A stretch of DNA of 64,000 nucleotides from a virus (taxonomy: Duplodnaviria > Caudoviricetes): the IMG/VR virus record IMGVR_UViG_3300013426_000014, positions 205,323 through 269,322 of that record; one strand, 5' to 3'. Shown here in pieces: positions 1,367-61,554 of this stretch. Each line of letters starts with the position of its first letter. Position 1 is the stretch's first letter. The notes below the pieces were generated by a model. The model saw only the letters and a list, made by a program, of their open reading frames with translations. It ran no database searches and was not told the origin of the DNA. The position numbers and the translations under genes were made by a program.

Positions 1367-1439
1367 GCGGATATGGTGTAATGGATAACATTCTTGATTC
1401 CGGTTCAAGCGATTTCAGGTTCGAGTCCTGATATCCGTA
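1367..1439 (+). tRNA. tRNA-Arg(CCG)
   Basis: CTTGA-TTCCGGT-TCAAG; A20 in D loop. Confidence 0.88.
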
Positions 1440-1452
1440 CAAGCAGAAATTT

Positions 1453-1527
1453 TGTGGGATAGAGCAGAGGTAGCTCATCAGGCTCATAACCTGAAGGTCG
1501 GGGGTTCGAATCCCCCTCCCGCTACCA
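1453..1527 (+). tRNA. tRNA-fMet(CAT)
   Basis: Near copy of 1287-1358; 1:72 mismatch; CCA. Confidence 0.92.
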
Positions 1528-1537
1528 AAACCGTGAT

Positions 1538-1902
1538 GCCTTCGTAGTTTAACGGTAGAACAATGGTCTTTGAGAATGTTGAATACAGTTTGTATATGAT
1601 GTGTATGAATGCTAGCATTCATCCAGATCTTTATATAGAGTGTATTTGACACAATTGGAGCTTGCAAATCGAAAGGTTTGCAATGGACATGATGATAACG
1701 TTGAACCCGTAACAGGTCACGCTGACGGTAACGACGTCGGAACGGTAGATTTGCCGGCCGCGAGAGAGTAGATAATCATGCACCTGTAGCGATTGATTTC
1801 GTATGGTGAATACGTACTCCAGACCACAACGATTTTTGTCGGCATGGTAACATGCGTGGTAAGCAAAACCATTAAGTGTGGGTTCGAATCCTACCGAAGG
1901 TG
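1538..1902 (+). tRNA. Opal-suppressor tRNA (anticodon TCA, probably Trp) interrupted by a group I intron
   Basis: Exon 1 1538-1570 (GCCTTCG...ATGGTCTT) plus exon 2 1864-1902 (CAAAACCAT...GTTCGAAT...CGAAGGTG) join to ATGGT-CTTCAAA-ACCAT; G73 discriminator. Confidence 0.9.
1571..1863 (+). mobile_element. Group I self-splicing intron, 293 nt, no homing ORF
   Basis: Exon ends in U and intron ends in G; IGS TTGGAG 1655-1660; P3 CATGAT/ATCATG; P4 ACGTTG/CGACGT; P7 GAGAGTA/TACTCC; P9 GCATG-GTAA-CATGC. Confidence 0.9.
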
Positions 1903-1936
1903 CGAATATTAACAGACAGAATTAGATTTATTGATT

Positions 1937-2731
1937 ATGACAGAAACAAAGATGAATACGCTGCTGGCCAGGACAGATCATGCTGCGGCGAGTGTGAACA
2001 AGATGTTTGCCGATTACGGCGCTTTCTTCAAGACGAAGCAGGGCGCATTCAGAGGCGAGAAGAAGACTTTCGAGCCAAGGGCCGGATATTTTGAGGATCC
2101 GTCTAAAATTGGCAATACTAAGGTTGTCACCACGGTCGGAGAGAAACTCGATTGGTTCAATGATCGTCTTAAGAAATATCTTAAGGACGTGTTCACAGTT
2201 GAGGAGACGAATTCCGCTGGCGCGAACAGAGTGGAGCTTGTCGTCAACGGCAGGTCATTCGGAAAGTTTACCGCGCTTGAGCTTATGCGTCTCAAGTCAT
2301 TGCTGACCAACTCCTCGCTTTCCACCGTATATGAAAACATTCCTGTCCGATCAGATGCGGAGGTGTGGAGTCCTGTGACTGATCCTGAGTACGCCGGACG
2401 TGAGGTGTTCCAGACGGAGCTCGTCAAGGGCGTTACCCGTACAACAGAGAATGAGGAGGTGATCCTTAAGGATCCGAATCTCGATCCTGCTCATCTTCCT
2501 TCAAACTATTCGGCGAAAGTGACGGTTAAACGCAAGACCGTCGAGACTGGTGATTACACGCAACAGAAGTTTACCGGCGAGTGGACACAGCGTCAGCGCG
2601 CCGAACTGCTCAAGCGTAAGTCAGATCTTCTCGCCGCCGTTATTGCCGCGCTTAAGGAGGTCAATGACACCGATGTGCAGCTACCGGAGTTCGACGTTGA
2701 TTCCATTGTTGACTATATTACCGAAGGGTAA
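1937..2731 (+). CDS. Hypothetical protein embedded in the tRNA cluster
   Basis: 264-codon ORF with coding-like composition. Confidence 0.8.
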   Translation: MTETKMNTLLARTDHAAASVNKMFADYGAFFKTKQGAFRGEKKTFEPRAGYFEDPSKIGNTKVVTTVGEKLDWFNDRLKKYLKDVFTVEETNSAGANRVELVVNGRSFGKFTALELMRLKSLLTNSSLSTVYENIPVRSDAEVWSPVTDPEYAGREVFQTELVKGVTRTTENEEVILKDPNLDPAHLPSNYSAKVTVKRKTVETGDYTQQKFTGEWTQRQRAELLKRKSDLLAAVIAALKEVNDTDVQLPEFDVDSIVDYITEG

Positions 2732-4032: not shown

Positions 4033-4141
4033 TATCTGTAATTTTGGATTTTACGAACTTTTTATAATGAATTTTTCATAATTGTTTTTTGGTTTCTCCG
4101 CGGCAGTGACGTCCCGGAGTTTTTTTATTATAAATAATTAT

Positions 4142-4264
4142 ATGAAACGTTTTTATAAAGTACAAGAAGAGTTTGACATGTCGGAGATATCCGACACGGA
4201 CTGCACTGATACGGATATGTCCGTTTTTTGAAAGTATATTGAATTATTGGATTTTATAACTTAA
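4142..4264 (+). CDS. Minimal FD-motif family peptide
   Basis: MKRFYKVQEEFDMSEISDTDCTDT; TATAAATA just upstream; TGA at 4229. Confidence 0.45.
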
Positions 4265-4269
4265 ATACA

Positions 4270-4737
4270 ATGAACCATATTAACGAAGATTTTGATTTGT
4301 CTAATATGTCAGATATAGACTATATTGATATATTTGCTGACATTGATCAGGATGCAGAAATTGTTAATAATTTCACCAATGCATTAAGGCGAGATTTGTA
4401 TCTTACCAATACAGCAATTCCAGATAATTTTGATGTCGGCGGGGTTGATTTAATCAAAATAGATGACGATTGCATCGTTGGGAAGATTTTGACATGGGAC
4501 GCGGAAAAAGTAATGCATCATTTTGGATTATACAGATTGTTTTGTTCGATTATATTATATCCTGGCAAAGACGGGCAGATAGAGTTCAATAGGCGGATAG
4601 GTCTTCCATGACGGATTGTGTCAAAAACCGAAGCATGTAATGTCAGAATCGTTACAAGTAATTTTATGATGACAGACGGCGCGCCATTTTCCGTTGACGG
4701 CGAGGTGACAACCGTGGTCAGGTCGTGATGAAATTAA
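4270..4737 (+). CDS. FD-motif family protein (TGA=Trp)
   Basis: LP*RIVSK aligns to VPWRIKSR of paralog 51181-51651 and similarity continues to TAA. Confidence 0.85.
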
Positions 4738-4797
4738 ATGATAATATATAGGTGTTGCATTGTATTATTAAAAGATAAGCAAATATATAGAAAGTCA

Positions 4798-5862
4798 ATG
4801 AGTAACCAGATTAAAATACAAAAAAATCAATACCTGAACGATTTTTTAGTAACAGAAGATTTTGATTTCAGCGACATGTCAGATGTCGACTACACTGACA
4901 CTTTCAGTGATATGGATCAAGCAGCGGAGGAAATGTTTGATTTCACGGCATGCCTCCGGAAATCCATTCTTATACGCGCACAGACACAAGAGAAGAAAGG
5001 ATTTATCCGTGGTTCAGATCCGGCATTTGACTCGCTTTTCGCCACTGCTGTATCTGGTTCTGCTGCAGACGGATGAAATGTAGATATCAAATCCACATCA
5101 GAAGCAATTCTTCTTAATATATTTGGTGGAACATCTGTGGATAATAATGGTTTCCATACTATTTGTATTGTGCTAGATTTAGCGTCCGCCACTGCATCGT
5201 GAGTGAAAACTGCGCGATGACGTCTATTATCCTCACCAGAATCCAATACACGATATATTTTGTATATCCGCCCTGCCGGACCGGGGACTGGAAAAAGAAA
5301 CGGATCGATGATTGGATCACCGGAATATGTGTTCGGCGATGTCATTGCTGGTGATCCCGTTATTGAGCCGATGGTCGGGCTTAAACCGATAACATTGCGT
5401 ACTTTAATCGGCTCGCCTGTGGAAGTGACCGGAGATTTTATCTGTACTATGGATCCCGCTGGTCCGTTTGTCCCGGGTTTTTTGAACGGAGCGCCGGAAC
5501 GGATCGGTCAAAACTTCGCGGTCCATGTGACTGGAGAAGAACGCATGTCACGTTCCATGACATCATTTTTGTGGGACGGAAAAGGAAATATTATTCCGGC
5601 TTTCACTGATGGTATCAGACGGGTGGTGAAAGGTTTTTTTGTATACCCACCGCATCCTGGCGCCCGTTCTGTGGAACGGCGGAAATCTGAATGTGACCTT
5701 ATTGTGATTGGAACCTCATCATCGCAGCGGAGACTGCCTCCGAGTCTTGTCGGCAAAACGCTTCCGGATATGGAAGTTTCGACCGGTAATGTGGTTGTAT
5801 ACGGTGATCCGGTGGTATGTGTCAAATGATTGGCAAAGGTCAACGGCGTGTACGTTGAATAA
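4798..5862 (+). CDS. FD-motif family LRR-like protein (4 TGA=Trp)
   Basis: TGA at 5074, 5200, 5218 and 5827 all align to W in paralog 51677-52801. Confidence 0.9.
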
Positions 5863-5901
5863 AATTAGACAGAAAGAATAACGGTAGTTAAAAAATATTG
5901 T

Positions 5902-6867
5902 TTGACTGAAGAATTTGATCTGACTGGAATGTCCGAAGTCGACTACACCAACACGTTTTCTGATATTGACGAGAAAGAACAAAAGAAATACACAGAGGAG
6001 TCCATATTGCGCTCGCATATATTGACATGATACGGCGAGTCGACCATACCGGATTTCATCTGGAATGATGAATGCACACATGTCGATTTGAAATTTCCTT
6101 CGCATTGCGATTTCTCGCATGACAATATGAATTTGTATCTTTTTGCTGACGGTGTCGCACTCGCCGAAATTGTCCGAAATAATATCAGTTATACGATTGA
6201 TCCATTGTACCAGATAATCGTCAAATTGACCGCGGCCGGACATGGAGACGGCGGAAATATGATTTATACAGGGAACATGGACATCGATTTGACTGGATGT
6301 CCTGATAAATGTGGAAGGCTTACCATTCAGTTAGATGAGCCGTTTAATACATTTTCTTTCACCGGCTCCCCGCGGGAGGTCGACGGAGATTTTATCGTCC
6401 GTGATATGTGGGCGGACGTCAATGACATGACTGGCGGTCCAGACAGGATCACCGGGTCGTTTTATTGGTATGCAAAGGCGAATATTCCAGGCAGGCTGAA
6501 GTCATTGTTGGGATGCCCGTTCGAAATTATGGGCAATATGTCGGTTGTGAATTCACCGTGCGCTCGATTTCCGTTGAATGCAGGGCATAAAGTAAAAATC
6601 GGTGGATTACTAAATGCCGGCTATCTTTCTCAAGATACGATTCCGGATATGATCAAAAAACGGGGATACACTGTATTGTCAGACGGTGCGGTTTTGGAAA
6701 TGACCACAGGAGGAAAATCTGCTTGATCACACGTAATTAAAGGTGACGACCGTGAACGAGCCGCGCCGGATTTCAAAGTTGATGGAGATATATATTCCGC
6801 CGTATACATCGCATGGAACGATGAGATCGGAGATAAGACTTATATATGGCAGCTGCCGAATTCATAA
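5902..6867 (+). CDS. FD-motif family LRR-like protein (2 TGA=Trp), start uncertain
   Basis: LTEEFDLTGMSEVDYTNTF; TGA at 6028 and 6724; GxP..VxGxF repeats. Confidence 0.8.
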
Positions 6868-22182: not shown

Positions 22183-22250
22183 ATGAAACGCTTTCGTGAA
22201 GTACAAGAAGGATTCGGCATGACATGTCAGGAATGTCAGATATAAAAGCG
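22183..22250 (+). pseudogene. Decayed FD-motif leader
   Basis: MKRFREVQEGF then DMSGMSDI in a shifted frame; similar to 4142. Confidence 0.5.
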
Positions 22251-22768: not shown

Positions 22769-23893
22769 ATGATGAACTGATATAATTCTTATAATATTCC
22801 ATTGTCGGAAGGTTTTGACATGTCGAACATGTCGGATTCTGACTATACCGACACATTCGCCGACGCGGACAACAACGCTGTGCGTGACGCTGCGGTGAAC
22901 GCATTTATCGCGGCCTGTGTCGAAGCGAATGACGAATCGGTCAAACTACAGTCCGGTAAATATTGTCTCGCTCAGATACAATTTTGTTCAAACGCAGAAA
23001 AATGAAAGGGATTTGAATATCAAGGTATATTAAGATATCCGTCAGATGATAGGATCGTGAATATCGATGAGGACGGTTTACGTGCGATCACCAGGGCGGA
23101 ATATGATACTGACGGTATTCAGATTATCATTGATCCGGAAAAAGTCGGGCAATTGCCTGGACGGATTTACAGTCTGAGCTTACGCATCGGATCCGGAATT
23201 AAATTTCCTATAGAGTGATCATCGATTTCATTATCCGGCCGTGATGTAGGCAGGAAGTACGCGCTTAAATTGTCTGTGATTCCGTCTTCCGACAGAAAAT
23301 TGTCATGTATGCCGAAACGGGTTGTCGGTAATTTCATACTTTTGGCGTCAGAAGGTCCGGTCGGACTGTATAGACATCCGATGAAATCATACGATGGATG
23401 CCCGGAATATGTTGCAGGTAATTGCACAATCGAATATGGGGCATGATGTAAGGATCCATTCCCACGTGATTTTACAGGATGTCCAAAATATGTCGGCGGT
23501 AATTTTACGGTATTGCTGAATCCATATAATGGCGCGGACTCGTTTCATAAAACGTTCGAGTCCGGCACTGGACTGCCTATTGAAATCGGAGGTCATGCAG
23601 ATCTTCAATACATACGGGATCTTGTTAAAAGGTCAAAGAATGGCGGGCTGATATCTTTATGTCCAGATGGGATGCGAAGGAGTTGAAAGTCATGCACATT
23701 GTTCATACCGTATAATAATTATTATGAAGTCCGTACAAACGGAAAATACAAGGGCGTTCCTATTGACGATAAGGTCGCGGGTAAAAAGCTTAACATAGAT
23801 GACGGCAAAATCAGTATATTGCTTGATGACATCAATATATCAGATAAAGCATGGATTGTTTATTTCACTCCCGGATTATCAAGAAAGCGTTAA
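22769..23893 (+). CDS. FD-motif family LRR-like protein (5 TGA=Trp)
   Basis: Single frame interrupted only by TGA; LSEGFDMSNMSDSDYTDTF; GCP.YV.GN repeats. Confidence 0.85.
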
Positions 23894-23903
23894 TAAATTG
23901 ATT

Positions 23904-25280
23904 ATGAAACTATATAACATTAAATCTGGATTGAATTTATCAAATCAAAGGATAACTGAGGATTTTGATCTGTCCAGAGAAGATGACGCAGACTGAACCG
24001 ACGCCATGTCGGACTCCGATGATGAAGCGATGGAGTTTTATACGTTTGTCACGACATTAAGATCTGCTGTACAACTATATGTACAGAACGAGGATGGTAA
24101 AGCTGTATATAAAAAAGGAACGGATCCGTCGCTCGATATATTGTTCAAAACATCTGTGACTGGAACAAACGCGGATGGATATGACGTGCGGTTGTTTTCT
24201 TGTCCGGCTGCTAATCAACTACTTTCGAGTATACATGGCAGAGCCGCTGCCGAAAATATGTATAATACCCACAGTGAACATACTTATATAGTAAGAGCAC
24301 GGCAGGTGCTGATCTGTCTGGATCTTTCCGCCCTGCCGGCGAATTTTCCGGTATGACGTCTTCCTCGACAGAAGGTTGATGGTTTCAATGTCATGCATAT
24401 GTTATATGTAATACCGTCTGCAGACGGCTCTTTACGTGGGATGCCGGAATTTATTGCCGGTAATGTATATATAGGCAAAGAGGAAGAAGAGAAAGAGGAA
24501 GAAGTTGGACCATTGGAAAAAGAGATATTATGACCAATGGATGCATCAGTGCGTCCAGTTCGGTCGATGACAGGATCGCCGCAAATAGTTGAAGGCAATT
24601 TCCGGGCGGTTATTATATGTCCTGATTCCAGTATGGTATCGTCTGATATTCTGAACGGATCACCGAAATGGGTTACTGGAATTTTTAGAATTATAGGGTT
24701 AAACAGGATTGATTGACCGGCATATAACTCATTTCTGTGAGATTCGGACGGTGCCATCCGGCCGGCGTTCACAGATGGTGTAAGCCGGATGTACGGTCAA
24801 ATTTACATAGACATACTGCATCCGGGTGTTGATTCATCAGCAATAGATTTATCAACAATAAAATCAGATGAGCGAACAAAGTGAACAGATTATATAGAGT
24901 TTGAACAATACAGTTATCGTTGTAGACTAACACATATAATGTTTCCTGATACTATTGTATTAGGTTGCATATGACATATTAAAATATATGGAGATCCAGA
25001 TGATACGGCACGATGATTGAAGAAAATCAATATTGATACACGAATTAACGAAGGTTTCGACATGTCGGATATGTCAGATATCGACTATACTGAAACGTTC
25101 GCGGACGCGGATCATGAGGCGCAGATGGTCAATAACTTTCTTAACGCGTTGTCGCACGATATCATTGAACTCGCACCGTTTTCAATGATATATCACAATC
25201 CGGAGTACCGACAGTTTACAGCGAAATCTACCGGAAGGATCAAATCACGTGCCGCCGCGAAAAAGTCGTCAGTATGATAG
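23904..25280 (+). CDS. FD-motif family protein running into a second unit (about 9 TGA)
   Basis: DAD*TDAMSD matches ENDWTDTMSD; SFL*D..PAFTDGVSR matches SFLWD..PAFTDGVSR; TAR*LKKINIDTRINEGFD. Confidence 0.8.
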
Positions 25281-25909
25281 GGCATGCTCGCTACATAGAC
25301 GGCGAGGTCATATATACCATGTCACCGTTACATAATTGAGAAGTGACGGTCGATTTGTCTCGGAACTGCTTGCGTGATTTTGTTTTGAACGGCGGCAGAT
25401 GACGGCGGGAAGCTCCCGATCCGGATCCCGAAGATCAATTTTACCACATGCATGTCATACCCGGACTGGCCGGTGATTTGACAGGATGCCCGGCTTATAC
25501 AGACGCGTATTTCACTGTTGATGATAACGATGGTCGTCTGACATCGCTGTACGGCGCGCCGGAATGAGCGGACCGTGATTTTGAGTACATATATCAAGGT
25601 GATGAGTGACTGGGTAAACATAATTACACCTACATGATGGGTCCTTTGCAGTCGCTTGAATGATCACCTGAATATGTTGGCGGCACATTCTGGATACAGG
25701 GAGCGAATCTGACAGATCTGACTGGCATGCCGGCGAAAGTTACCGGACAGGTGAGAATCAAAGATTCTATGATGCCGGAAATTTACGCGGGATTAAACTG
25801 TGGTGGTGACAGCGTGCCGCCGGAACTGCTGCCTACCGGGCGATGCGCGATAACAGTAAGGAATCCGTGCGACATGGGAGCACCGTTCAGGATATGGTCG
25901 TCAATTTAA
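25274..25909 (+). CDS. C-terminal LRR-like part of an FD-motif unit, -1 frame (5 TGA)
   Basis: LTGCP, SLYGAPE, LTGMP repeats; only TGA interruptions. Confidence 0.7.
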
Positions 25910-25938
25910 TAGGATAAAACAATTTAATAGGATAAAAC
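25903..25938. repeat. 18-bp direct tandem repeat x2
   Basis: AATTTAATAGGATAAAAC twice. Confidence 0.9.
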
Positions 25939-25954
25939 AAATAATAAAGACTAT

Positions 25955-26923
25955 ATGTTGTCATTAAACGAAGATTTTGACTTTACCGATATGTCGGATA
26001 CCGATTACACAAATACATTCGCCGATATCGATGAATCCGCGGAAAAAGAAAAGGCTTTACAGGATGCGTTCTGAACAGATTATGTGCCATGCTACCGTGA
26101 TTATCCGTCTGTGACAGTGATATGTAAGAGCAAAAATGATATTCCGGAATTATCCGTCACAATAGTGGACAATCCGTATTGAAATCCTGCTATTATTCTG
26201 GATTTGGCGCGTGGCGGATTTGCCGGTTTCATTAAAAAATATGGTGATTATATTATTCGCGGCGGCAAATCCGGATCTATAGCAGGTACGGTATCACGTC
26301 TATTATTACAATTCATCCCGACATCAGACTTTAACCTTATCGGAGCACCGGTAGAGACAATCGGGTTGAATGTTTGTATCGGCAAGAATGACCGTACTAC
26401 TGGCCCGGCTCTCCAAAAATATGATCCCCGCGTCGCAATTCGTTCATATCAGCTGAACTCATTAGACGGATGCCCGCGCCGGATTACCCGCGGAAATTTC
26501 AATATCACCAATTGTCCAAATCTAAATTCGTTAAAAGGATCGCCGGAACACATCGATTATAATATGTCTGTTCGTAAATGTGGAGGGGAACGCATAAAAA
26601 ATTTAGACGGTATGCCAGAATATATCGGCGGAACATTTTATTCAATTAAATCTATACAGCCGGTCGGGCATGATCCAGACACAGGTGAATGACGGCGGCT
26701 GCTGACAACTGGAACAGTGCAAGTCGGTGGTATCACCATATTGAATACCATACCGGCGGAGCCGAGCTACGACATCACATCTAATGACGCAAAAAATCCG
26801 AAAAGCAAAGCAGGTAAGGTATACAAAATGGTAACAGCTGGAATCACCAGTCATACCGGCGCGGATATTGTCAAAGGATCTGTTGAAGTTGACACATCAA
26901 TTCCGATCAATGAGATAAGATAA
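25955..26923 (+). CDS. FD-motif family LRR-like protein (3 TGA=Trp)
   Basis: MLSLNEDFDFTDMSDTDYTNTF; joins ORFs 26204 and 26717. Confidence 0.85.
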
Positions 26924-50053: not shown

Positions 50054-51196
50054 TTACCTTACCGTGTTCGCGACTGTCACGGCGCGGAGGACCGCGGCCT
50101 TGTTATACGACATCATCTCGATGATAATCCCCTCCCCGCACGAGCAGTCGTCAGCTATCAATTCGGCCAGCCCGTTATATTTTCCGGACCCCGGCGCGCC
50201 GATGTTCACCATCTCCGTCTGCCGATTCGCGCCACTCGCTCTGTCCTTCGCCACGTCCGGCGACATAAGCGCAATCTGCCCGCCGATCTCGCGCCGGACG
50301 CCGTCGCCGAACAGCGGGACGCATCTGCCGTCGTCATCCCACGGCAGAACACGCGTCCCGCACAGTAACAGGGAATTGCCGATCCGCCGCGGCGCGCCCT
50401 TCGCCGACGTCAATGAGCTGCAACATGAGAAATCGGCGAAGTCGCGGACGACATCCGGCGATCCCGTCAGGTCGTTGACCTCTGTCCGCCATGCGGCGCC
50501 GCCGGCTGACGTATGTGACACGAACCTCGCGACACCGAAGTCGTCACACTCCCGCGGCGCGCCCTCAAACGACCGCAGTGGACGGAATCCGGATTCCGGG
50601 CCGGCCGGATCATAGTAGAATATATAATACGGCTTCTCGCGCGGCGGCGCCGGAACGATCATATAACTCCCGTCCACGTACGACGGCGACCCGACGAGCG
50701 TCCCGTCCGCGCGCGGCATCGCGTACACCCAGAAGCTGCTGCTGTTATGATTTATCCCGTCAGGATAAACCGGGACAATCGCGTACTCGTGTATATTCGC
50801 CGGGATCTTGTCGAGATCCAGTATGACGCCGGTGAAGCCGCCGCGGACCGTGACATACACACAGAACATGTCATCCGTCCTGTCGAACCGTATCCTGTGA
50901 CCGAACATGTTCCCGCGCCGCCGGATTGACGTCGACATGTTACAATCTGAATCAAAATAATAACATACCGCCGGGACGAGCGACCGTTCGAATTCGGCCA
51001 TCTCCACGGCGGCCTGATCCATGTCGCCGAACGTGTCCGTGTAGTCGACGTCGGACATGTCCGAAAAGTCGAACCCCTCGCGTATTGCCGCGCCGACAGA
51101 TGTCCGCGCGTCCGCGTCCCATATGTATGTGTCTGTCATGCGGTCCGCCATGATATTCGTCATGTCCTGTGTTTTGTTTGTTACAGCCGCGGCCAT
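50054..51196 (-). CDS. FD-motif family LRR-like protein
   Basis: IREGFDFSDMSDVDYTDTF; GSP/GAP repeats. Confidence 0.85.
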   Translation of the reverse strand: MAAAVTNKTQDMTNIMADRMTDTYIWDADARTSVGAAIREGFDFSDMSDVDYTDTFGDMDQAAVEMAEFERSLVPAVCYYFDSDCNMSTSIRRRGNMFGHRIRFDRTDDMFCVYVTVRGGFTGVILDLDKIPANIHEYAIVPVYPDGINHNSSSFWVYAMPRADGTLVGSPSYVDGSYMIVPAPPREKPYYIFYYDPAGPESGFRPLRSFEGAPRECDDFGVARFVSHTSAGGAAWRTEVNDLTGSPDVVRDFADFSCCSSLTSAKGAPRRIGNSLLLCGTRVLPWDDDGRCVPLFGDGVRREIGGQIALMSPDVAKDRASGANRQTEMVNIGAPGSGKYNGLAELIADDCSCGEGIIIEMMSYNKAAVLRAVTVANTVR

Positions 51197-51651
51197 TTGA
51201 TCACCTCTTGCACATTTTTTATTCCGTCGACGGAGGACGGCGCGCCTAATGTGTCGTCATAATTTTTCGTGATGATCTTGACGCAAACACAGCCGGACCG
51301 CGATTTTATCCGCCACGGGACGCCGTACTTCTCTGTGAACCGCCTCAGCCCGCCGGCGCCGTCCTTTAGCAGGACACTGCAGTACAGGACCGTGATCCAT
51401 CGGTCCATGGAGAGGACCTTGTCCGCGTCCCACGTCATGATCCGGCCGGCGTCGGGATCGTCGTCCATGCTGATCAGATCCGACGATCCGACGTCGATCC
51501 GGTCCGCCAGCGCCGCGTTCGTGATCCGCATGTCACGCCGGAGCGCGTCCGCGAAAGCCGACACCATCTCCGCGTTCTCGTCAATACTGGAAAATGTATC
51601 AGTGTAGTCGACGTCCGACATGCCGGATAAATCAATTTTCTCGTTTAACAT
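51181..51651 (-). CDS. FD-motif family short protein, paralog of 4270
   Basis: LNEKIDLSGMSDVDYTDTF; ALRRDM.ITN; TWDA.KV. Confidence 0.85.
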   Translation of the reverse strand: MLNEKIDLSGMSDVDYTDTFSSIDENAEMVSAFADALRRDMRITNAALADRIDVGSSDLISMDDDPDAGRIMTWDADKVLSMDRWITVLYCSVLLKDGAGGLRRFTEKYGVPWRIKSRSGCVCVKIITKNYDDTLGAPSSVDGIKNVQEVIKWPRL

Positions 51652-51676
51652 TTATAAAAACCGAATAATTTTAATC

Positions 51677-54640
51677 TTATACCAGCCCGTTCATCACGCA
51701 CAGCCATTTCGCGCACGCGGCCGCGTCGCCGTACACCGTCACGCGCGCCCGGGCGGCGGACAGATCCGGGAACATCATGCCGTACAGTCCCTGCGGCCAG
51801 TTCCGCGGGGAGCCGGAGCCCAGCCACATGGACGACGACTCCGACTTCCGCCGGCCGGCGACGTTCGCGCCCGGATGCGGGACGTCGACTTTGATCTCGC
51901 CGCACCGCCGGGACACCCCGTCCGTGAACGCCGGCACGACGTTCCCCTTGCCGTCCCACAGGAACGACGTCGTCGGACGCTGCATCTTCCTCGCATCCGG
52001 GAACGTCACGGTGAAGTTGTTGCCGACCCGTTCCGGCGCGCCGTCGAGGAAGCCCGGGCCGTAAGCGAGTCTCGGACCCGGTGCCTCCATCACGCATTCG
52101 ATGTTGCCGGTGACCTCCTTCGGCGCGCCGGCAAGCGACCTGCAGACAGACGGCCTGAGGCCGATGACGTCCGTCAGGCTCCCGTACACGCCGGCGTTCA
52201 CGTCGCCGCCGACGAATTCGGGCGAGCCGATCAGCGAGCCGAAACGCTTGCCTGTTCCCGGCCCGGCCGGCAGTATGAACAGCTGGCATTTCGTTATGCC
52301 CGGCCCGGGCTCGAGCCGCCAGCGAGCGGACTTCGACCATGACGCCGGCGCCGCCTTGAGATCCAGCGCCGCCTCGGCGATCCTGCCGTCAGACGGGGCC
52401 GCGAACGCCGGTGTGTCGAACATCGAGGTCGTCATGACGCCCGGCGCGTCGGACAGCGTGACCGTCCATCCGTCCGCGGACGAGCCGGACACCGCGCGGG
52501 CGAACAGCGGGTCGAGGACGGGGTCGGACCCCCTGACCCACCCGTTCTTCCCGGCGGACGTGCGGACCTGCAAAAGGAGCGCCTTCCGGAGGCCGGCGGT
52601 GAACGCAGACTTCTCCGCCGCGGCCTGGTCCATGTCGCTGAAAGTATCCGTGTAGTCGACGTCGGACATGTCTGAGAAGTCGAAGCCCTCCGACACGGCT
52701 TTCCGCCGGGACGGTTTTCCGTCCTTTCCGGACGGCTCAGCCGGCCGCGTGTCGATACATATGAGACCGGACGGGGCGTCAATCCCTTTCATCGCGTTCA
52801 TGTAAACCGTCCTTCAGTATGACGTCGACGCGTCGGCGATCCCGGCTTCTTTTCATCTGTCCTTTCCGGCGGTGACGGTGAAAACACGGAATTTCCCGTT
52901 CTTCTCGCGTACCACGCGCGGCAGCGTGCGATCGGCGGACCTGACGTTCACATTGCCGCCGACACGCGCCCGGCCGGGCGCCGGGAGGATCCTCTCGCAC
53001 GCGCCGTCCCGGCCGGCCCGCGGGGCCGCGATGACGCCGGCCACATCGAGGTCGCCGCCGATGAACGCCGGCAGTCCGGACATGAAGTCCGGACCCTTCT
53101 GCCGCGAGCTGTTATTCGGGTCATATATGTACCTGAACTCCAGCGTCACCGACCCGTCGACATACTCCGGCGCGCCGGCGAGCGACGTCAGGGAGTCTGA
53201 CTCGACATAGAGCGACGCGCCGAGGTCCAGCCTCCGCGGAGCGCCGGACATCGACTTCACCGCCGAGTTGACACGCACGTCAATGCCGGCCACCTCCGCC
53301 GGCGCGCCGTGAAGGTCCCCCGCCGCCGACGGGTTGAGCGTGATCGTGACGTCGTCGATCAGGGCGGTTACATCGCCGACGACCCCTCCGTTATCGAACA
53401 CCCGTCCCGCTTTCAGCGACCATCCCCCGTACGCGTCGGCCAGCCGGGCGAACCCGCCGCGGGACAGATCGATCCCGATATTGATCTCGTACGGCGCGTA
53501 CTCGGCGCCGTTCAGATCGACGTCGAGCCTGACGATCACATTGCCGCCGCCGTCGCGACTGAGCGGGTCGCCGTTGTCGTCCCGTGCCGTGAGGATCACC
53601 TTGACGTCGATGTCGGCGTCATCGCGAAGATCGCTGCCATAGTTGATCATATCCGATTCGCACGCCTTCTCCACCGCGACACACGGCCCCTCGCGGTCGT
53701 CGATATCGCTCAGCGTGTCGGTGTAGTCGACATCGGACCTGTCAGAGAAGTCGAATCCCTCATTAATCCCGCCGCTCCCGCCGCGGCGTTTCATATGGTC
53801 GCGCGACGCCTTCTGATAGCACGGATCTCACTGCGTGCTGTCTAAATAATCGGCAGGCAGTTCGCCATGTATGTCGCTGAGCGACCGGATCTCCCGCGGG
53901 ACAAGATTCGCCGGGAAAAGATCCGCGCAATCCGCCCCGCCTGTGATCACATACAGCCTGATATCGGTCGGCGCCGGCGCGCCGAACTGATCGCCGATGT
54001 CAATCAGCGATCACGTCATTCATTTCGGAAGGCGGTCCACCGTCCATCGATTGAACGACGCGCCGTACATCGCGGCGATCGCGCGCCGCATTGACGACCG
54101 CGCGGCGGCAGACCGGAAATCCATGATGAGCGGGAACGAATCCCATGATGTCAACGTCTTCACCTCGTCGGTGATGAAGAACCTGATCCCCCAATTGTCA
54201 CGTGGAAGGGAATAAGTCGACGTCGTCATCCATATGGACTGTTTGCTCTTAATTTGGCGGCCGGCCGGCGAGAGCGGCGTCATCGTCAGGCCGGGCGCGC
54301 GGGAGATCATCTCGGCGGCGCTTGCCGCCGTCATCAGTTCGACCCGCCCGGACGACTGGATGAACATCGGATCGAACACCGGACTGTCACATCTTATCCA
54401 CTTGACATGTTTCGGCACATACATACCGCCGGCATTCAACGCCACGCCGGCGTCAGACACCCGCACCCGGGATATCCGCCGCATCCATTTAATGAAAAAT
54501 TCAGGCGCGGCGCGGTATTGCATATCATTGTCATCCATGTCAGACAATGTGTCGGTATAATCGACATCGGACATGTCCGAGAAGTCGAAATCCTCGTTGA
54601 TCTCCCGTCTTCATCCGTGTGTTTTATTACAAGCGTCCAT
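51677..54640 (-). CDS. Three FD-motif units in one frame: 987-aa polyprotein if TGA=Trp, otherwise ORFs 54020-54574, 52853-53794 and 51677-52801
   Basis: Only TGA (54611, 54020, 54011, 53828, 52853, 52814) between ATG 54640 and TAA 51677. Confidence 0.75.
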
Positions 54641-57429: not shown

Positions 57430-58260
57430 TTAGATGTCGCCGTGCGACTCGAACACCCATCCGTCGGACGTGTCGCCGGAGCAGCTGACCGCGAGCGTCC
57501 CGTCCGGGTATCCGGCGTCCTTCGCCTGCTCCGACATCTTCCTTGCGAGCGCGGCGGAGTCGGGGTTGTCGTCCGCCGCCATGTTCACGTACATGTCCTT
57601 GCTCGTCCTGTATTCCTTCCTTCCCTTCTCGTCGAGCGACCCGTACACCGCGACGCCGACGTCTATCGTCTTCCCGTCCGTCCTGACCCACCTGAAACCG
57701 GGATCGTTGTCCGACACGTCGAGCACCCCGCCGATTTTCAGCGGCAGGCCGTCCAGGCTCTTCAGCCTGTTGTTCCTGCAGCTGCAGTTCCCCCTGACAT
57801 ACTCCGGGAAATCAGTGATCTTCTCGACGTCGGAATCAAACATCCACATCGAGCCGCCGACCTTCTTCGGGAACCCGTTGGTCGACTTCAGGTTCTGCCC
57901 GATGATGTATATGTCCTTCCCGATCTCGCCGAACCTGATGTACGGCGGCAGGTCCCCGTCGGTCCTCAGGCTGATGTGGTTGGCGACGTTGATGACGCCG
58001 CCCTCGGCGATCCACCAGTCCGGCCCGCCCTCGACGCCGATGCCGGCGCCCTCGTACTCCGCGGACTCGTCGAGCCTGTCACAGAACACGCAGTGCGTGT
58101 CCATCCATTCGGTGATCGCCTTGACCTCCTGCTCGGCGTCGTTGTCGGACATCGTGTCGGTCCAGTCGTTCTCGTCCATGTTCGACATGTCGAAGGGCGA
58201 CGTCTGCTCCCCGGTGTCGGGGGTCTCGTTCAAATTAAAATCAAAATTTCTCTCTTCCAT
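57430..58260 (-). CDS. FD-motif family LRR-like protein
   Basis: LNE...FDMSNMDENDWTDTMSD; LKSLDGLP.KIGG repeats. Confidence 0.8.
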   Translation of the reverse strand: MEERNFDFNLNETPDTGEQTSPFDMSNMDENDWTDTMSDNDAEQEVKAITEWMDTHCVFCDRLDESAEYEGAGIGVEGGPDWWIAEGGVINVANHISLRTDGDLPPYIRFGEIGKDIYIIGQNLKSTNGFPKKVGGSMWMFDSDVEKITDFPEYVRGNCSCRNNRLKSLDGLPLKIGGVLDVSDNDPGFRWVRTDGKTIDVGVAVYGSLDEKGRKEYRTSKDMYVNMAADDNPDSAALARKMSEQAKDAGYPDGTLAVSCSGDTSDGWVFESHGDI

Positions 58261-61486: not shown

Positions 61487-61554
61487 ATGTGATCCCGTTT
61501 TGTCCTTTGAATTATTTATAGCGGGCGGAGATGCCGACACTTCGGACGCCGGAA

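Follow-up and report, generated by a model that had tools for sequence, protein, structure and literature searches.

A clade-restricted acidic tag on diversified proteins of a Lak-related gut phage: candidate head cargo and prohead-protease substrates

The cargo-loading peptides of encapsulins are short and terminal, and direct diverse cargo into an HK97-fold shell; they have another sequence than the peptide described below, are mostly C-terminal and operate without protease or DNA, and the likeness is one of analogy only. The internal proteins of phage T4 are diverse apart from a common capsid targeting sequence: IPI, IPII, IPIII and Alt each carry one short conserved N-terminal peptide on otherwise dissimilar proteins (PMC3012670). 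The T4 maturation protease, gp21, requires L or I at P3 and E at P1 of its cleavage sites (PMC9026906). Large, diverged families of head paralogs are also found in the giant phages SPN3US, phiKZ and 201phi2-1 (the family A/PF12699 inner-body proteins and, in SPN3US, family B): the SPN3US family has 20 members, and in some giant-phage head paralogs a gp21-related protease cuts N-terminal propeptides that are identical, and these proteins are believed to be ejected (PMC5694885).

The phage considered here is a Lak-related gut phage of T4-like lineage (its major capsid protein, MCP, is 49% identical to that of Lak) and not a member of the phiKZ-like group. About 25 of its proteins, together accounting for 22 kb or 8% of the 269,322-bp record, bear a common acidic peptide. 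A regular expression and an HMM profile trained on 21 copies find this tag motif 25 times in six-frame code-4 translations of the record; HMM E-values are 1e-10 to 3e-16, apart from 3e-6 and 9e-6 for two weaker ones. The original prediction had counted about 16 such units in the window (the whole 64,000-nucleotide stretch that was analysed; Table 1), and the units are real: 15 strong copies lie there, those before 27 kb on the + strand and those after 50 kb on the - strand, and these agree with 15 of the gene starts that had been noted. The remaining one, at 22183, is a decayed copy without a significant HMM match, yet it begins with the same leader as the remnant at 4142. Outside the units, Rfam at E <= 0.01 gives no group I intron in window positions 1400-2000.

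Table 1. Tagged units and late-promoter-like elements in the window, with the position of each motif match and the gene start given in the original prediction.
Feature	Coordinates	Strand	Motif position	Predicted gene start	Remarks
Late-promoter-like element TATAAATA	4129..4136	+			ahead of first cluster
Short remnant unit, 40 aa, MKRFYKVQEEFDMSEISDTDCTD...	4142..4264	+	4157	4142	HMM E 9e-6; leader also heads full-length P0018 and P0032 in relatives
Unit with short B body, 155 aa	4270..4737	+	4276	4270	paralog of 51651 (bodies 47% identical, E 2e-32)
Unit with A body (modelled beta-solenoid)	4798..5862	+	4849	4798	4 in-frame TGA = Trp; body 48% identical to that of 52699 (E 2e-89)
Unit with repeat body	5902..6867	+	5896	5902	without ATG; TTG start probable, giving M-T-E-E-F-D-L; ortholog P0018
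Decayed unit-leader remnant, MKRFREVQEGFGM... (translation)	22183..22245	+			HMM E 0.45 only
Unit with repeat body, 374 aa	22769..23893	+	22799	22769	5 TGA = Trp; no Pfam/PHROG family
Unit with A body	23904..25037	+	23949	23904	in-frame fusion to next unit, no stop codon
Unit with tag and repeat body split	25038..25909	+	25038	25017	1-nt deletion near 25265, following an A run; tag and first 80 aa 25038-25277, repeat body 25274-25909
Unit with C body, 322 aa	25955..26923	+	25961	25955	paralog of 53770
High-GC unit, A-like body	50054..51196	-	51088	51196	HMM and body comparison
High-GC unit, B body, start M-L-N-E	51181..51651	-	51651	51651	HMM and body comparison
Candidate polyprotein, 987 codons, 3 units	51677..54640	-	52699, 53770, 54604	52801, 53794, 54640	no TAA/TAG in frame; unit starts near 54640, 53794/53770 and 52801/52699
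High-GC unit, divergent tag SPFDMSNMDENDWTDTMSDND	57430..58260	-	58209	58260	ortholog P0043
High-GC unit, A-like body, 448 aa	60140..61486	-	61435	61486	HMM
Late-promoter-like element TATAAATA	61513..61520	-			26 nt upstream of the 61486 start

The motif is previously undescribed, strongly selected and restricted to one phage clade. Among 1.84e9 proteins it matches only 56 protein clusters (counted as representatives), all in that clade and nearly always within the first 60 residues, which excludes a chance origin. The 66-nt DNA segments encoding it are on average only 63% identical between copies and include switches between the TCN and AGY codons of serine: it is thus the peptide itself that is under selection. 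The profile has no match in Lak-B1, and none within 10 kb on either side of the protease gene of one relative (L012); its filter may miss diverged tags like those of another, L010. On viral contigs, no related locus queried with the motif alignment or the A-body alignment was confirmed by tblastn.

This constant peptide heads at least five body types that have no detectable similarity to each other. Units range from 150 to 530 aa and are acidic as wholes (pI 4.1-6.8); the T4 proteins, in contrast, are small, and IPII and IPIII are basic. The bodies had been described as mostly carrying LRR-like repeats, which is correct to the extent that at least one G-x-P-x-x-[VIL]-x-x-[GDNS] repeat is present in 13 of 24 units, but several bodies have none (those at genome positions 15277, 29182, 76420, 84886 and 47966 also being unlike the rest), and Pfam LRR models find no match at E <= 1. 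For 14 members, Pfam and PHROGs yield no credible family at all: similarity to T4 capsid targeting sequences or internal proteins is not among the matches (and the motif profile reaches only its 56 clade-specific proteins), nor, in Pfam at E <= 0.1 to 1, is PF12699 or any head paralog. An AF2 model (pLDDT 80) gives the A-type body as a beta-solenoid built on G-x-P-x-x-V-x-G-x-F repeats, a possible likeness to LRR and right-handed beta-solenoid binding domains. The matches are weak (VIA Z <= 5.7): Foldseek against PDB and BFVD has none at E <= 0.001, and the best Z of the wide VIA search, 5.7, is at the level of a "common arrangement" only, the matches at Z 4-5.7 being to TPS secretion/adhesin domains, phage tailspikes/beta-helices and LRR receptor chains. 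Is the motif an integral part of one domain? In the AF2 model, half of it is: the leader and the first half of the tag (pLDDT < 55) are disordered and lie outside the folded body, while the DYTDTFSDMD half forms the start of the body's first helix (residues 50-74), which packs on the body. The tag is therefore not purely detachable.

Directly preceding the motif is [ILV]-x-E, a T4-type cleavage pattern. When 31 tag copies are aligned, E is conserved in at least 90% and P3 is I, L or V in nearly all. Comparable sites are found in the phage's own head proteins: the MCP has LNE at residues 48-50, in its N-terminal region, invariant out to Lak-B1 at 49% identity, and the alignment of the protease-scaffold protein has six conserved hydrophobic-N-E sites, among them an invariant LNE19 and VNE172, the latter at the end of the protease domain. 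What stands before [ILV]-x-E in the tagged units is unconserved--a single Met (MLNE, MINE), up to 50 basic residues, or an entire upstream unit--as expected for a segment that is cut off. (The pattern is short, and frequent by chance.) When the tag (40 aa; alignment of 29 rows) is modelled in complex with the protease-scaffold protein (589 aa, 25 rows), ipSAE is 0.00, which counts neither way on binding.

The units are often joined in frame without a stop codon. Such a junction is free of every type of stop codon in the strain variant P0189 and in the relatives P0047 and P0052, and the junction between the units at 23904 and 25038 is likewise continuous in P0047. (An AF2 model of P0189 across its junction has a pLDDT of 33, too low for use.) The original prediction's separate, TTG-started gene at 25017 has to be given up, because this unit is in frame with the one at 23904 and is then broken by the 1-nt deletion; it is intact in P0047 and in another relative, L021. 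The 987-codon frame is identical in two independent assemblies, L007 and L008. The high-GC cluster of the relative L006 consists of separate genes for its units, of which three are fused in the phage considered here; fused and free forms are therefore interchangeable. The linkers at the junctions are conserved between phages. Two further relatives have fusions of their own, each located directly upstream of its own protease gene: a three-unit frame of 1038 aa in L011, and a 956-aa ORF with four variant copies of the tag in L010.

In this phage, too, four units (genome positions 32258, 31153, 30157 and 29182, - strand) lie directly upstream of a protease gene. Its product is a Peptidase_S77 (gp21-family) protease (PF03420, 45.4 bits against a cut-off of 27; phrog_207, E 6e-37) fused to an acidic, helical extension of ~400 aa that is probably a scaffold, and the next gene encodes the Gp23-type MCP. 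In T4, core genes 67 and 68 occupy the equivalent place upstream of the protease gene. Most units are far from this head module. A late-promoter-like element, (G)ATAAATA, is present at 78 sites where 37 are expected; it stands before 6 of the 11 transcription units of the family and before the genes for sheath, portal, head closure, MCP and protease, and none of the helicase, ligase, NrdD and PurA-like genes has it. TATAAATA, the T4 late promoter in its exact form, shows hardly any enrichment, with 16 sites where 9.4 are expected, and the information lies in the shorter ATAAATA.

The same acidic peptide following a protease-type site, and polyproteins that in some cases adjoin the protease gene, lead us to a reading of the family as late proteins that enter the prohead and are cleaved there by its protease, to which we assign an even chance of being right. 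The units would be made late, singly or as polyproteins of two to four units, and recruited into the assembling prohead, where the T4 gp21-type maturation protease would cut at the [ILV]-x-E ahead of each copy of the motif. Every unit would then have one common acidic N-terminus (x-F-D-phi-S-D-M-S-D-x-D-Y-T-D-T-F-S-D-x-D), and site and peptide together would make up a transferable tag for head targeting and processing; the beta-solenoid and other bodies would be diversified cargo, retained in the capsid alongside the DNA and later ejected into the host. Cleavage, targeting, packaging and ejection are steps that we infer. The most specific version, in which one peptide serves both as protease site and as capsid-loading tag, on free genes or on polyprotein "magazines", for ~25 diversified binding proteins delivered with the DNA, is more doubtful and is offered tentatively. 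The proposal at the outset was that diversified bodies share one signal for packaging or docking; circumstantial evidence sides with it (the protease and MCP neighbours, [ILV]-x-E, the polyproteins, the promoter-like element, the unrelated bodies), while the half of the tag that is placed within the body's first helix does not. That the bodies might be injected effectors such as anti-defence proteins, as was suggested along with it, is speculation. Short leaders, acidic pI, remote units and the commonness of [ILV]-x-E count, with that helix, against head cargo.

How far does the T4 precedent carry? The gp21-family protease and the L/I-x-E-type site at the tag (PMC9026906) are points of likeness, as are gene sets that differ between relatives (PMC3012670, PMC9026906). 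The tag of this phage, at ~25 aa, has no sequence similarity to the 10-residue T4 tag MKTYQEFIAE, and it is differently placed: in T4 the targeting sequence ends in L/I-x-E on the upstream side of the cut, as a propeptide that is lost, whereas here the conserved tag is C-terminal of the putative cut and would therefore stay on the mature protein, so that the T4 mechanism is not simply transferable. A further difference is that some of the about 25 members come from genes for multi-unit polyproteins. For heads of the SPN3US/phiKZ type, the cleavage motif is A/S/G-x-E, and neither a shared acidic tag nor polyproteins have been reported.

An unlikely alternative does without cleavage and packaging: the members would be late cytoplasmic proteins, absent from the virion, which the acidic-aromatic peptide, [ILV]-x-E included, docks on a common hub (a host protein, or an assembly or regulatory factor of the phage), each body bringing a different partner. 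A disordered acidic/aromatic peptide, as the AF2 model has it, is typical of docking motifs, and none of the bodies is like a virion protein known to Pfam or PHROGs; the location of most units outside the head module is also accommodated. [ILV]-x-E is retained even after a lone Met, which is more what one expects of an epitope than of a propeptide junction; cutting off a leader no longer than M-L-N-E would gain little, and [ILV]-x-E may simply belong to a binding epitope. Such a hub leaves unexplained why, in three phages, fused units immediately precede the prohead protease gene, why in-frame fusions interchange with separate genes, and why the family has a promoter-like element in common with structural genes.

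Might the proteins instead be displayed on the outside of the virion? A constant N-terminus followed by a variable beta-helix or LRR-like body is the usual anatomy of receptor-binding proteins, and the peptide could anchor adhesins or decoration proteins to capsid, neck or baseplate, in the manner of multiple tailspikes, leaving the variable bodies to bind host or mucosal surfaces. The structural matches to TPS adhesin domains and phage tailspikes, and the late-promoter-like element, are compatible with this, but those matches go no further than a common arrangement, the units are small and without sign of a trimerisation domain, they adjoin the prohead protease and capsid genes rather than a tail module, and the polyproteins need a protease, the sole one identified being one that acts in proheads; we consider external display quite improbable. 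Very improbable, finally, is a motif that signals nothing: it would cap the N-terminus of an ancestral helix-plus-solenoid domain and have been inherited, conserved, by fast-diverging paralogs, and fusions and frameshift would be signs of decay, or of imprecise gene boundaries where a multigene family recombines. The packing on the body of the helix that the DYTDTFSDMD half begins, the one repeat type common to 13 of the 24 units, and the presence of remnants and one frameshifted copy are what such a family might be expected to show. It is harder to see why conservation should be limited to ~25 residues when everything else has diverged past recognition, or why the tag should also be on bodies free of repeats; synonymous turnover indicates strong purifying selection on the peptide alone, and the junction linkers are conserved between phages.

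If the head-cargo reading is true, ~8% of a Lak-related genome is devoted to head cargo carrying a simple tag that can be transferred, and the virion contents of uncultured megaphages could be read from sequence. Tailed phages would then be able to stock their capsids by way of polyprotein processing, which the literature cited here does not describe for them; a second natural packaging tag, besides that of T4, would become available for loading foreign proteins into capsids; and the diversified binding proteins would form a reservoir of candidates for action at the very start of infection.

Two matters bear on how these genes are read. Where low-GC copies have TGA, the aligned codon of high-GC paralogs and strain variants is TGG, at conserved tryptophans including that of D-[YW]-T in the tag, which confirms code 4 (TGA = Trp); as in gut phages with this recoding, in-frame TGA occurs at conserved Trp, and TAA or TAG terminates the genes. 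The possibility that TGA stops translation between fused units was considered and rejected: homology to the paralog at 25961 runs across both TGAs ahead of the junction in the 987-codon frame, and the strain variant has Cys/Trp codons instead (P0189 carries TGY at sites where this genome has TGA). A chimeric assembly as the source of the high-GC block was likewise rejected, the same block and GC transition being present in the independent assemblies L007 and L008 and in the relative L006.

The tagged family is real; it is under strong selection and limited to one phage clade. The original prediction had pointed to a recurrent motif, and a profile search finds strong copies of it at the positions proposed: the window holds 15, together with one decayed remnant at 22183, lying on the + strand before 27 kb and on the - strand after 50 kb, and a profile built from 21 copies brings the genome total to 25. 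The consensus of this constant acidic N-terminal peptide, the "tag", is [ILV]-x-E-[GDE]-F-D-[FLM]-S-x-M-S-D-x-D-[YW]-T-D-T-[FLM]-S-D-x-D. Tag DNA has a mean identity of 63% between copies (its flanks, about 30%), and its synonymous changes, together with TCN/AGY exchanges at serine codons, argue for selection on the peptide. Only 56 of 1.84 billion representative proteins match a 31-copy profile, almost all with the motif within their first 60 residues and many shortened by gene callers that take TGA for a stop; 5.8 billion clusters contain only 10 relatives of the A-type body and 3 of another body. This scarcity indicates that the family is restricted to a small clade of phages. The motif profile did not find the tag in Lak-B1, DNA-pattern scans of viral contigs yielded no confirmable relatives, and none of the papers or protein-family libraries searched describes the family.

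The source IMG/VR record (269,322 bp, estimated 87% complete; the window is bases 205,323-269,322) carries 33 tRNA genes (ARAGORN, whole genome), and its major capsid protein is distantly T4-like and shares 49% identity with its counterpart in the Prevotella Lak megaphages. Family genes are fragmented under translation table 11 and intact under table 4. That TGA is read as Trp in this phage is directly supported by alignment: TGA in low-GC copies aligns with TGG in high-GC paralogs (ADGwNV/ADGWTV; ASwVKTARwRL/ASWSKSARWRL; the conserved FLWD), at the aromatic position of the tag (D-[YW]-T) two copies use TGA and three use TGG, and a strain variant, 97% identical, has TGG or TGY at sites of TGA in this genome. 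ARAGORN found no tRNA with anticodon UCA genome-wide; Rfam (E <= 0.01) found no group I intron at window 1400-2000, matching only the tRNA at 1453-1524. Bodies of types A, B and C are each present twice, in the low-GC clusters (window 4142-6867 and 22769-26923) and again at window 50054-54640; Trp codons are mostly TGA in low-GC copies (38-47% GC) and mostly TGG in high-GC copies (57-69% GC). An assembly chimera is ruled out as the source of the high-GC block, which independent assemblies and one relative also carry.

Downstream of four tagged units outside the window come a T4 gp21-type prohead protease and then a Gp23-type capsid protein gene. The protease extension is acidic and helical: its middle is rich in Asp and very acidic, and its helical C-terminus is conserved. 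This extension is probably the scaffold, as the protease and capsid genes have no separate scaffold gene between them. Such fusion is the norm for the lineage (693 homologs; hundreds are 590-690 aa long), and the predicted protein is probably itself cut into pieces. T4 gp21 cuts on the C-terminal side of a Glu that has L or I two positions ahead of it; a site of this kind ends the T4 capsid targeting sequence, or CTS (PMC9026906; PMC5694885). Here, [ILV]-x-E immediately precedes the tag in all copies, its Glu at least 90% conserved. Residues 48-50 of the capsid protein are LNE, which is invariant out to Lak-B1 and which a weak alignment with mature T4 gp23* places in the propeptide region. Six hydrophobic-N-E sites are conserved in the protease-scaffold alignment, LNE19 and, where the protease domain ends, VNE172 being invariant; the sites parallel the LIE-9 site and C-terminal autoprocessing of T4 gp21. 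What precedes the tag site is not conserved: a lone Met (MLNE, MINE), a basic leader of 10-50 aa, or a whole upstream unit.

Coordinates of features of the tagged family and its surroundings
Feature	Coordinates	Strand	Remark
Tagged units	genome 32258, 31153, 30157, 29182	-	directly upstream of prohead protease
Prohead protease with ~400-aa extension	genome 26277-28049, outside window	-	Peptidase_S77
Homing-endonuclease-like gene	genome 23221-24282, outside window	-	phrog_3339, E 3e-21; directly downstream of major capsid gene
(G)ATAAATA sites	window 3103, 4129, 28737, 29328, 30138, 34919, 37680, 59842, 61520, 63580		
High-GC block	window ~46-62 kb; genome 1-10 kb		
Dead-end leaders	window 4142-4264; 22183-22245		open the low-GC clusters
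A-run deletion	window 25255-25280		

The most unusual feature of the family is its polyprotein arrangement. Window units 23904 and 25017 (named by gene start) share one frame; units 54640, 53794 and 52801 form a 987-codon frame without TAA or TAG; elsewhere in the genome, 31153 is fused to 30157 and 76420 to 75415. An artefact of reading TGA as sense is rejected on three grounds: paralog homology crosses the TGAs, junctions lack any stop codon in the strain-variant protein P0189 and in the relatives P0047 and P0052, and a basic junction linker (G-K-K-W/C-G-L-x-Q-Q-K-K-N-P-A-x-P...K-K-x-N-E) is conserved between phages. One relative (L011, protease 87% identical) has a three-unit, 1038-aa frame before its protease; another (L010, 63% identical) has there a 956-aa ORF with four variant tags, IKESFDNSFDDNAEDYSE, LNEDFNNSFDDNTDDYSD, ILEGFEDSFNDNETDFSD and VNEGFNDSFNDDEEDYTD. 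In a third, L006, units of the high-GC cluster, partly fused in this phage, are separate genes. Fused and free forms are thus interchangeable, the pattern to be expected if cleavage strips away all that lies ahead of the Glu, so that all units come to share one N-terminus.

ATAAATA, usually as GATAAATA, occurs at 78 sites genome-wide (37 expected). It stands 8-65 nt upstream of tail sheath, portal, head-closure, capsid and protease genes and upstream of six of the 11 family transcription units, a seventh being the third gene of an operon with such a site; all four replication and nucleotide-metabolism genes checked (helicase, ligase, NrdD, PurA-like) lack it. This distribution suggests that the family is part of the late regulon of structural genes, and (G)ATAAATA is a candidate T4-like late promoter in this Lak-related phage.

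What might the tag do? The most economical reading, to which we give an even chance, places the family with the T4 internal proteins as a variant of their system, for which we infer cleavage, targeting, packaging and ejection alike: a transferable tag would mark diverse late proteins for the prohead, and the gp21-type protease would process them inside it. Four features set it apart from T4: the conserved peptide lies C-terminal to the proposed cut and would stay on the protein, the members are large and acidic, polyproteins can encode the cargo, and the family has far more members. It is best classed as a new kind of tag-directed head cargo, a variant on the T4 theme. The tag is unlikely to dock its proteins onto a shared cytoplasmic hub, still less likely to anchor external adhesin-like virion proteins, and about as unlikely to be only an inherited helix cap with no signalling role.

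Units measure 150-530 aa, are acidic overall (pI 4.1-6.8) and together take up about 22 kb (8% of the record). The 13 of 24 units with G-x-P-x-x-V-x-G-x-F-type repeats are linked by weak BLAST matches, at least five units share no similarity with the rest of the family, and none of the 14 members tested has a Pfam or PHROG family. AF2 modelled one A-type member (pLDDT 80) as a beta-solenoid after a long N-terminal helix; its leader and first tag half have pLDDT < 55, and the DYTDTFSDMD half begins the helix. Structural searches gave nothing beyond generic beta-helix/LRR likeness (Foldseek E > 0.02; VIA Z <= 5.7).

Compared with the intact relative L021, the 25017/25038 unit has lost one base behind an A run (GCGAAAAAG-TCG), which separates its tag from its body, the latter lying in the -1 frame. 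Possible explanations are a sequencing error, a pseudogene, and slippage at the A run, either ribosomal or transcriptional. Both low-GC clusters open with a short dead-end leader, MKRF(Y/R)(K/E)VQE(E/G)F, which in relatives starts full-length proteins (P0018, P0032), and the 5902 unit has lost its ATG. Dead-end leaders and lost ATG suggest recombination in tag-coding DNA, swapping leaders and bodies.
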